Position numbers and translations under genes: made by a program. Shown here in pieces: positions 7,532-41,725 of a DNA stretch of 64,000 nt. The stretch covers positions 32,984,001-33,048,000 of the forward strand of contig OX597818.1 in NCBI GenBank assembly GCA_951406725.2, given 5' to 3'. Every line of letters begins with the position of its first letter. Within the stretch, counting starts at the first letter, position 1. Below the pieces are notes generated by a model. That model was given only the letters and a program-made list of their open reading frames with translations. It searched no databases and was not told where the DNA came from. The DNA is from Octopus vulgaris (Eukaryota).

Positions 7532-7571
7532 AAGAAATTTGAAAAGCTACACTCGAAACCGGTAATTTCTT
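7532..7571 (+). ncRNA. Minimal hammerhead motif with U3-A8 core variant
   Basis: AAGAAAT-TTGAAAA-GctacactC-GAA-ACCGGT-A/ATTTCTT: 7-bp stem I, palindromic stem III, GUA site. Confidence 0.65.
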
Positions 7572-12918: not shown

Positions 12919-12954
<36 letters not shown>

Positions 12955-13006
12955 GTAGTAACAGAAAAGAGGAATTTCGATTATCCCCACACGGTGAGTT
13001 GTAATG

Positions 13007-13298
13007 TATATAAGAAATTAAAAGAAGAAAATACGCACACTTACATAGTTTTAATATAATTTTTAATATATCGACCTGTTTCGCTATCGCTATTCATGAT
13101 ATTGTTTTATTTATTAGAATATATATTTTTTCTTAAGAAGAAATTTGGTCCATGTTGTGTGTGATGAAATTCACGAGAATATATATTCTAATAAATAAAA
13201 CAATATCATGAATAGCGATAGCGAAACCGGTCGATATATCAAAAATTATATTAAAACTATGTAAGTGTGCGTATTTACCTCTTTTAATTTCTTATATA
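13007..13298. repeat. Inverted repeat, about 121-bp arms (13007-13127 / 13178-13298), 50-bp spacer
   Basis: Arms are near-identical reverse complements with a few mismatches. Confidence 0.9.
13203..13237 (+). ncRNA. Minimal hammerhead motif with A3-U8 core variant (mirror copy at 13068-13102, minus strand)
   Basis: ATATC-ATGAATA-GC gata GC-GAA-ACCGGT-C/GATAT; the same core is present in both arms. Confidence 0.65.
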
Positions 13299-13339
13299 GT
13301 ATATATATATATAGAAAGAAGGATTGTCCACACAGCTAC

Positions 13340-28647: not shown

Positions 28648-29226
28648 TATTTCTTTATTGCCCACAGGGGGCTAAACTTAAAGGGGACAATCAAGGACAG
28701 ACAAACGGATTAAGTTCATTACATCGACCCCAGTGCGTAATCGACCCCACGAGGGTGAAAGGCAAAGTCGACCTCGGCGAAATTTCAACCAAGAACGTAA
28801 CGGCAGACGCAATACCTATTTCTGTACTACCCACAAGGGGCTGAACACAGAGAGGACAAACAAGGACAGACAAACGGATAAGTCGATTATATCAACTCCA
28901 GTGAGTAACTGATACTTATTTAATCGACCCCGAAAGGATAAAAGGCAAAGTCGACCTCGGCGGAATTTGAACTCATAACGTAGCGGCAGACGATATACCT
29001 ATTTCTTTACTGCCCACAAGGGGCTAAACACAGAGGGAACAAACAAGGACAGACAAACGGATTAAGTCGATTATATCGACCCTAGTGCGTAACTGGTACT
29101 TAATTAATTGACCTCGAAAGGATGAAAGGCAAAGTCGAACTCTGCGGAATTTGAACACAGAACGTAACGGCAGACGAAATACGGCCACGCATTTCGCCCA
29201 GCGTGCTAACGTTTCTGCCAGCTCGT
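28648..29226 (-). mobile_element. Family A SINE trimer (one head, three bodies) inside one 14-bp TSD
   Basis: TSD agtcgaacttggta at 28632-28645 and 29233-29246; units joined at aaatag|gtatt(t)cgtctgcc. Confidence 0.85.
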
Positions 29227-41440: not shown

Positions 41441-41725
41441 ATTTCTTTACTGCCCACAAGGGGCTACACACAGAGAGGACAAACAAGGACAGACAAACGG
41501 ATTAAGTCGATTATATCGAGCCCAGTGCGTAACAGACCAGGACAGACAAACGGATTAAGTCGATTATATCGATTCCAGTGCGTAACTGGTACTTATTTAA
41601 TCGACTCCGAAAGGATGAAAAGGCAAAGTCGACCTCGGCGGAATTTGAACTCAGAACGTAGCGGCAGACGAATTACCGCTAAGGATTTCGCTCGGCGTGC
41701 TAACGATTCTACCAGTTCGCCGCCT
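41441..41725 (-). mobile_element. Family A SINE with an internal duplication and a 15-18-bp TSD
   Basis: TSD gtatttactgagctt(att) at 41426 and 41727. Confidence 0.85.

Follow-up and report, generated by a model that had tools for sequence, protein, structure and literature searches.

The inverted repeat at positions 13,007 to 13,298 of a 64,000-nucleotide stretch of Octopus vulgaris DNA (hereafter the window) carries in each arm a hammerhead motif in which A3 and U8 replace the C3 and G8 of the consensus core, all other core positions matching that consensus. This raises the question of what kind of element carries the motif, whether the A3-U8 pair is a local accident or a maintained state, and whether RNAs bearing it could cleave themselves.

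The two arms (13007-13127 on the minus strand and 13178-13298 on the plus strand) can be aligned without gaps over 121 nt, with four mismatches (13228/13077, 13240/13065, 13277/13028 and 13279/13026) and 96.7% identity. Each presents ATATC, ATGAATA, GC-GATA-GC, GAAA, a 4-nt loop, TC and GATAT in succession, the layout of a minimal type I hammerhead (Table 1). The three-way junction is complete, with stems I and II, the A15.1-U16.1 pair and an NUH site, the cleavage triplet being GUC. The preliminary description of this DNA had placed an A3-U8 motif in both arms, with C17 at 13232, and the gapless alignment and the motif scan confirm it; it had missed that the stem III palindrome of the left arm reads ACAGGT and not ACCGGT, and the self-duplex energy is 0.0 kcal/mol for the left copy versus -8.3 kcal/mol for the right one. 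An Rfam scan at gathering thresholds gave no hit in the window.

Table 1. Features of the inverted repeat and of its flanks, in window coordinates (PLE, Penelope-like element).
Feature	Position	Strand	Basis or remark
Minimal type I hammerhead motif, A3-U8 core	13203..13237	+	Sequence, scan, pair counts; cleavage predicted
Stem I	13203-13207/13233-13237	+	Sequence, scan
Core box ATGAATA (A3 U4 G5 A6 A7 U8 A9)	13208..13214	+	
Stem II, 2 bp, with GATA loop	13215-13222	+	Followed by GAAA
Stem III palindrome ACCGGT	13226-13231	+	
C17, predicted cut position (cut after the C)	13232	+	
Second motif copy, same A3 and U8	13068..13102	-	Stem III palindrome broken at 13077
5'-truncated PLE: 3' pseudo-LTR part, hammerhead, ~50-nt tail	12953..13177	-	All 225 nt match dispersed copies (~90-96%)
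Piece of that pseudo-LTR in inverted orientation, joined where the element is truncated at 5' and reaching the 3' end that has no tail	13178..13298	+	Element positions 51-171
Apparent 50-nt spacer, upstream pseudo-LTR of the element	13128..13177	-	Directly precedes the arm at most of 28 other loci
Optional ~50-nt tail	12953..13006	-	Extends in longer copies as far as the following unit, entering its 5' UTR
(AT)n microsatellite, left flank, likely insertion target	12921..12951		
(TA)n microsatellite, right flank	13300..13313		

Judged from its sequence organization, the locus is one minus-strand, 5'-truncated PLE followed by an inverted piece of its own pseudo-LTR, inserted in (TA)n. Three substitutions and a short deletion are common to both arms and absent from most of 72 copies of the element, which is consistent with a single template for both arms; an early stop of reverse transcription followed by a template switch would have produced the inverted piece. 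The point of truncation and inversion lies inside a small pseudo-LTR hairpin, TTCAC..GTGAA (window 13163-13177), as in L014, and near this hairpin in L028, suggesting that the hairpin is possibly a hot spot for template switching. Since both arms correspond to one PLE insertion, they are not independent evidence, and the mirror arm says nothing on selection. Transcripts of the window locus fold from either strand into one long hairpin (-172 and -177 kcal/mol) and hold only one sense motif, so that no dimer can form in cis. The locus had been put forward as the strongest candidate here for an active ribozyme of non-canonical core; it is in fact a poor one, because the sense and antisense motifs of a read-through RNA anneal into a 121-bp hairpin. 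The window copy is an inert, ordinary broken insertion.

A first search with the arm gave 1395 candidates in the 2.8-Gb genome, of which 40 were scored and found to be 93-95% identical, the two arms themselves aside. Copies terminate around element position 174 or around positions 219-225, two classes about 50 nt apart, and often do so in TA runs. The pseudo-LTR immediately precedes the start of an ORF in three loci (L089, L099 and L098), and the tail of the first of them continues as far as this ORF start. Upstream in longer copies lie a GIY-YIG domain and its CX4CX2C linker, then a reverse transcriptase (RT); the GIY-YIG match in a longer copy has an E-value of 2.9e-4, just under the curated cut-off, and 115 of 2435 candidate homologues have RVT_1 and GIY-YIG Pfam matches. 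The family thus displays the hallmarks of endonuclease-bearing (EN+) PLEs: one ORF with RT then GIY-YIG (present in the longer copies of the genome but absent from the window), a 3' pseudo-LTR, inverted at the 5' end in the window and in L007, L014, L035, L036, L260 and L261, and an optional 3' tail. The Cys linker CX4CX2C before the EN domain and the TA runs at many copy ends are hallmarks of the Neptune clade, the linker being also present in Nematis. Among the loci examined of the A3-U8 clade (hereafter the A clade), none has a full-length intact ORF, every ORF seen being broken, and none has both pseudo-LTRs in direct orientation. An array at C5:101.44-101.52 Mb (L031-L034), considered as a set of full-length elements, was rejected: it is a 2.4-3.6-kb segmental tandem repeat that amplifies an old A-clade copy, whose palindrome in L031 reads ACTTGT. 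The PLE ORF fragment of about 500 codons present in L031 and L033 is separate, 3 kb away, and appears to belong to another family. Elsewhere in the window, 28738-29182 and 41479-41586 consist of tandem units (183 and 53 bp, respectively) of a dispersed SINE-like repeat.

The A3-U8 core is fixed in this clade. Exact matches to a 26-nt motif pattern number 336 in the genome and 0 for the reversed control, so that the motif is not due to chance. With a scaffold held fixed, we obtained 844 matches (reversed controls, 0), namely 787 with A3-U8, 29 with a residue other than A at position 3 and 28 with A3 and a residue other than U at position 8; none has the canonical C3-G8, and the 787 are copies, not independent events. 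In near-complete copies, A3 is found in 70/72 and U8 in 71/72. The preliminary description had supposed that the variant predates the duplication and was carried by the mobilised RNA: it was indeed mobilised, and fixed in a whole family, and its genome-wide check brought no canonical member to light, but the mirror arm, being part of the same insertion, is not independent evidence. U3-A8 occurs in 5 of the 29 non-A3 matches, four of which (L101, L124, L118 and L128) belong to other families and one (L112) is an old mutated copy. The latter was rejected as a U3-A8 member of the clade, its family having mostly ATGATTA (10/18 anchor matches, 7/11 with a stricter anchor). Contigs from sequencing runs bearing four organism labels cover the stretch; no difference at position 3 or 8 occurs among the 40 listed of 169, a sample too incomplete to carry weight. 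Three metagenome matches to the pattern have no proper stem I and no PLE ORF, two of them in a bacterial-looking gene context, and were set aside as chance.

Three A3-U8 subfamilies could be distinguished: A1, that of the window (ATGAATA, stem I ATATC/GATAT), A2 (ATGATTA, stem I TGTC/GACA) and C (ATGATTA, stem I TAGTC/GACTA). The A3-U8 pair is constant across the three, while N7, loop II and stem I vary. Over 12 natural copies, 94.2% of the cells are paired, versus 18-39% in slid-structure controls; these rows were hand-picked, 8 from A3-U8 subfamilies and 4 from the U3-A8 families B and D, and their relatedness inflates the shuffle control. In the same 12 copies, two-sided changes affect 5/5 stem I pairs and the 3-8 pair, the latter being Watson-Crick in 12/12 rows (A-U in 8, U-A in 4).

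The relatives of the clade indicate from which state this pair arose. Hammerhead motifs with a CCGG loop number 1817 with U3-A8 (control 10), family B representing 74 of the 100 listed, and 115 with C3-G8 (control 7), mostly in 359-bp tandem repeats; the two patterns allow different spacer ranges, and the counts do not include the canonical families with loops of another kind that this genome also has. No G3-C8 family appeared among the 100 listed of 1287 purine-3/pyrimidine-8 matches (control 115). Family-level changes at 3-8 in this genome preserve a Watson-Crick pair, including within the 359-bp tandem repeats, which vary between C3-G8 and U3-A8. In the thumb-EN region, family B is 58-60% and family F 57% identical to the A clade, and both have U3-A8. 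A 26-row protein tree with midpoint root, using 14/115 homologues and leaving family D unplaced, has the topology (F,(B+P0001, A)), with supports of 96/94 for the grouping with family F, 98/96 for that with family B and 100/99 for the A3-U8 clade, 2/4 of whose rows are without a confirmed A3-U8 by the ORF (L217 is truncated, with no motif beside it). L107 has C3-U8 in the motif adjoining the ORF and A3-U8 in a second copy. In an earlier 36-row tree, the C-type loci fell inside the A clade (100/98). With the A3-U8 clade nested among two U3-A8 families, parsimony favours a flip from U3-A8 to A3-U8 and not an origin from C3-G8. The path proposed at first, C3 to A and G8 to U, is therefore not the one to which the nearest families point, and A3-U8 was likely derived from the U3-A8 variant by such a flip.

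Several other hammerhead-bearing or related repeats were met in the same genome. Tandem and inverted repeats of about 359 bp with one hammerhead per unit (L162-L191, L139, L142, L144 and L151) are retrozyme-like. In PLE family F (L252-L254, L257) the open frames are 784-785 codons long and the hammerhead, of the U3-A8 type, has GUA as its cut site; L257, which carries two directly oriented motifs separated by 4.4 kb, is a ready model of a dimer. A young PLE family (L222-L251, L255 and L256) has a microsatellite-rich 3' region and open frames of 755-876 codons in 29/30 of L222-L251, and no hammerhead was detected by scan up to 1.5 kb from its ORF. The window itself also contains, next to a TA run, a pseudo-LTR fragment whose U3-A8 minimal hammerhead (7539-7564, plus strand) is that of the sister family B. 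A minimal hammerhead with the canonical C3-G8 core and a CG loop lies at 47283-47257 (minus strand) and, together with similar motifs in L026, L059, L124 and L129, probably belongs to another PLE family.

The PLE context, the fixation of A3-U8, the compensation in stem I and, on a midpoint-rooted tree, the nesting among U3-A8 families are what the sequences show. The reading that we favour, and which seems to us reasonably probable, is that of a pseudo-LTR hammerhead of a PLE clade whose 3-8 pair became fixed as A-U, likely from U-A, and which likely cleaves slowly when two copies pair via the ACCGGU palindrome. A transcript running through a tandem element would bring two pseudo-LTRs together, and their palindromes would form an intermolecular stem III. 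The residue at hammerhead position 8 acts through its 2'-OH; in the active fold, A3 would pair with U8, the 2'-OH of which would act as that of G8, and the RNA would be cut after C17, possibly only with the help of the element protein. Przybilski and Hammann, in 2007, reportedly found any Watson-Crick 3-8 pair to be cleavage-competent in two ribozymes, with pyrimidine-3/purine-8 preferred in one. In the active fold, the canonical C3 and G8 form a tertiary Watson-Crick pair (PMC3884650). Minimal hammerheads of PLEs are described as inactive monomers and weakly cleaving dimers (PMC4209133), and for that of an anole PLE the account given is of cleavage only with its protein and of a tolerated G3-C8 swap (PMC11167929). 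For the A3-U8 clade we infer a slow reaction of dimers. The folding energies speak against it, A3 introducing a competing pairing in the monomer: its lowest-energy fold pairs A3/U4 with U16.1/G16.2 (-3.6 kcal/mol versus -2.6 kcal/mol for the hammerhead fold). The stem II of only 2 bp also counts against cleavage, as do the type III mutational scan considered below (PMC9901934) and, among the A-clade loci examined, the broken ORFs and the failure to find two directly oriented pseudo-LTRs in one copy.

The same fold might have been kept for a non-catalytic job, such as dimerisation by the palindrome or recognition by the element protein, the A3-U8 core having no useful cleavage rate. We consider this unlikely, although several observations speak for it. 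Hammerhead mutants of the anole element are reported to insert normally in vitro, with no RNA-seq reads ending at the site (PMC11167929); a type III hammerhead scanned exhaustively by double mutants was rescued by the G3-C8 swap alone, A3-U8 not being among the rescuing swaps and all other mutants of the region being low (PMC9901934); and in family E, which has intact ORFs, no hammerhead was found by scan. However, U4, G5, A6, A9 and G12-A14, which are unpaired and catalytic, have all been retained together with complementary 3-8 residues, beyond what dimerisation or protein binding should need.

That the motif is a dead ribozyme, in which two chance mutations of a founder spread passively, is very improbable and largely refuted. 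From U3-A8, 3/9 double changes give a Watson-Crick pair by chance, so that complementarity alone is weak evidence, and since the copies of a subfamily share their ancestry, the 787 copies represent few events. Against this, three compensatory swaps in stem I divide the subfamilies, all of which have kept A3-U8, and between subfamilies the motif is identical at 29-32/35 columns, versus 42-65% in the flanks. Twelve core columns are identical in all three subfamilies, compared with 81/207 flank columns; six of these twelve belonged to the anchor, poor alignment understates flank identity, and the A2 tally carries a bias, some of its loci having been selected for their non-A3 cores. According to another proposal, A3-U4-G5 would serve as start codon of the element protein, which would explain the fixation of A3, U8 then compensating. 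It draws on the AUG of the core and on the GTAAG-like donor that follows it in the window subfamily, and is rejected as scarcely credible: the main ORF starts at a separate ATG, some 150 nt beyond C17; the frames opened by the core AUG have only 18, 38 and 23 codons (L089, L099 and L098, respectively); and an acceptor AG was not seen between donor and ORF start in L073 and L089.

The A3-U8 core is a real, clade-wide variant for which cleavage is predicted. We found no report of a natural A3-U8 hammerhead in the literature searched, which was largely open-access. The 2017 work of Lunse, which reportedly lists about 150,000 PLE-linked hammerhead variants, may contain one. More tentatively, and with rather more doubt than conviction, the whole clade might have kept a working purine-3/pyrimidine-8 hammerhead, the first natural case, by way of the U3-A8 flip; such cores would be missed by the standard CUGANGA and UUGANAA descriptors, and many PLEs regarded as 'ribozyme-less' may carry them. 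With this variant, a third 3-8 pair enters the natural sequence space of the ribozyme core that has been studied best. C3-G8, U3-A8 and A3-U8 form a natural series within one genome, U3-A8 and A3-U8 having almost the same scaffold, and this series lets one ask whether PLE hammerheads are selected for cleavage at all. The variant also shows that hammerhead search descriptors undercount, the CCGG-loop motifs of this genome comprising 1817 with U3-A8, at least 787 with A3-U8 and 115 with C3-G8.

The closest known systems are the minimal type I hammerheads of PLE pseudo-LTRs (Cervera and De la Pena, 2014; PMC4209133), which share with the present motif the position in the pseudo-LTR, the short stem I, the G10.1-C11.1 pair and the palindromic stem III, as well as the occurrence of solo motifs and of opposite-strand pairs 100-700 bp apart. 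The descriptors given there correspond to C3-G8 and U3-A8, in contrast to the A3-U8 found here, and none of the motif rows examined in its Fig. S3 has a purine at position 3; unlike those hammerheads, the octopus motif has a stem II of 2 bp and no extra base after A9. At the level of the element, likeness to the Neptune and Nematis EN+ PLEs (Craig, 2021; PMC8557442), by features and not by RT phylogeny with references, extends to the single ORF with RT and C-terminal GIY-YIG, the CX4CX2C linker described for both, and the (TA)n targets, inverted 5'-truncated copies and optional tails described for PLEs, the tail being about 50 nt here and 30-40 nt there. The anole element PAc, a Poseidon element of Anolis (Frangieh, 2024; PMC11167929), has the same pseudo-LTR hammerhead, two 3' ends defining a tail and AT-rich targets, but its natural core is C3-G8 and its ORF starts inside the hammerhead, whereas the ORF lies about 150 nt downstream here. 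Finally, natural U3-A8 hammerheads are known (PMC3088659; PMC4209133), and the U3-A8 variant reported by Perreault (2011; PMC3088659), which occurs in the Cercyon PLEs of Schistosoma, shares with the octopus clade the covariation of positions 3 and 8; U3-A8 is also what the two families closest to this clade have, the order being reversed to purine-3/pyrimidine-8 in the A3-U8 clade itself.
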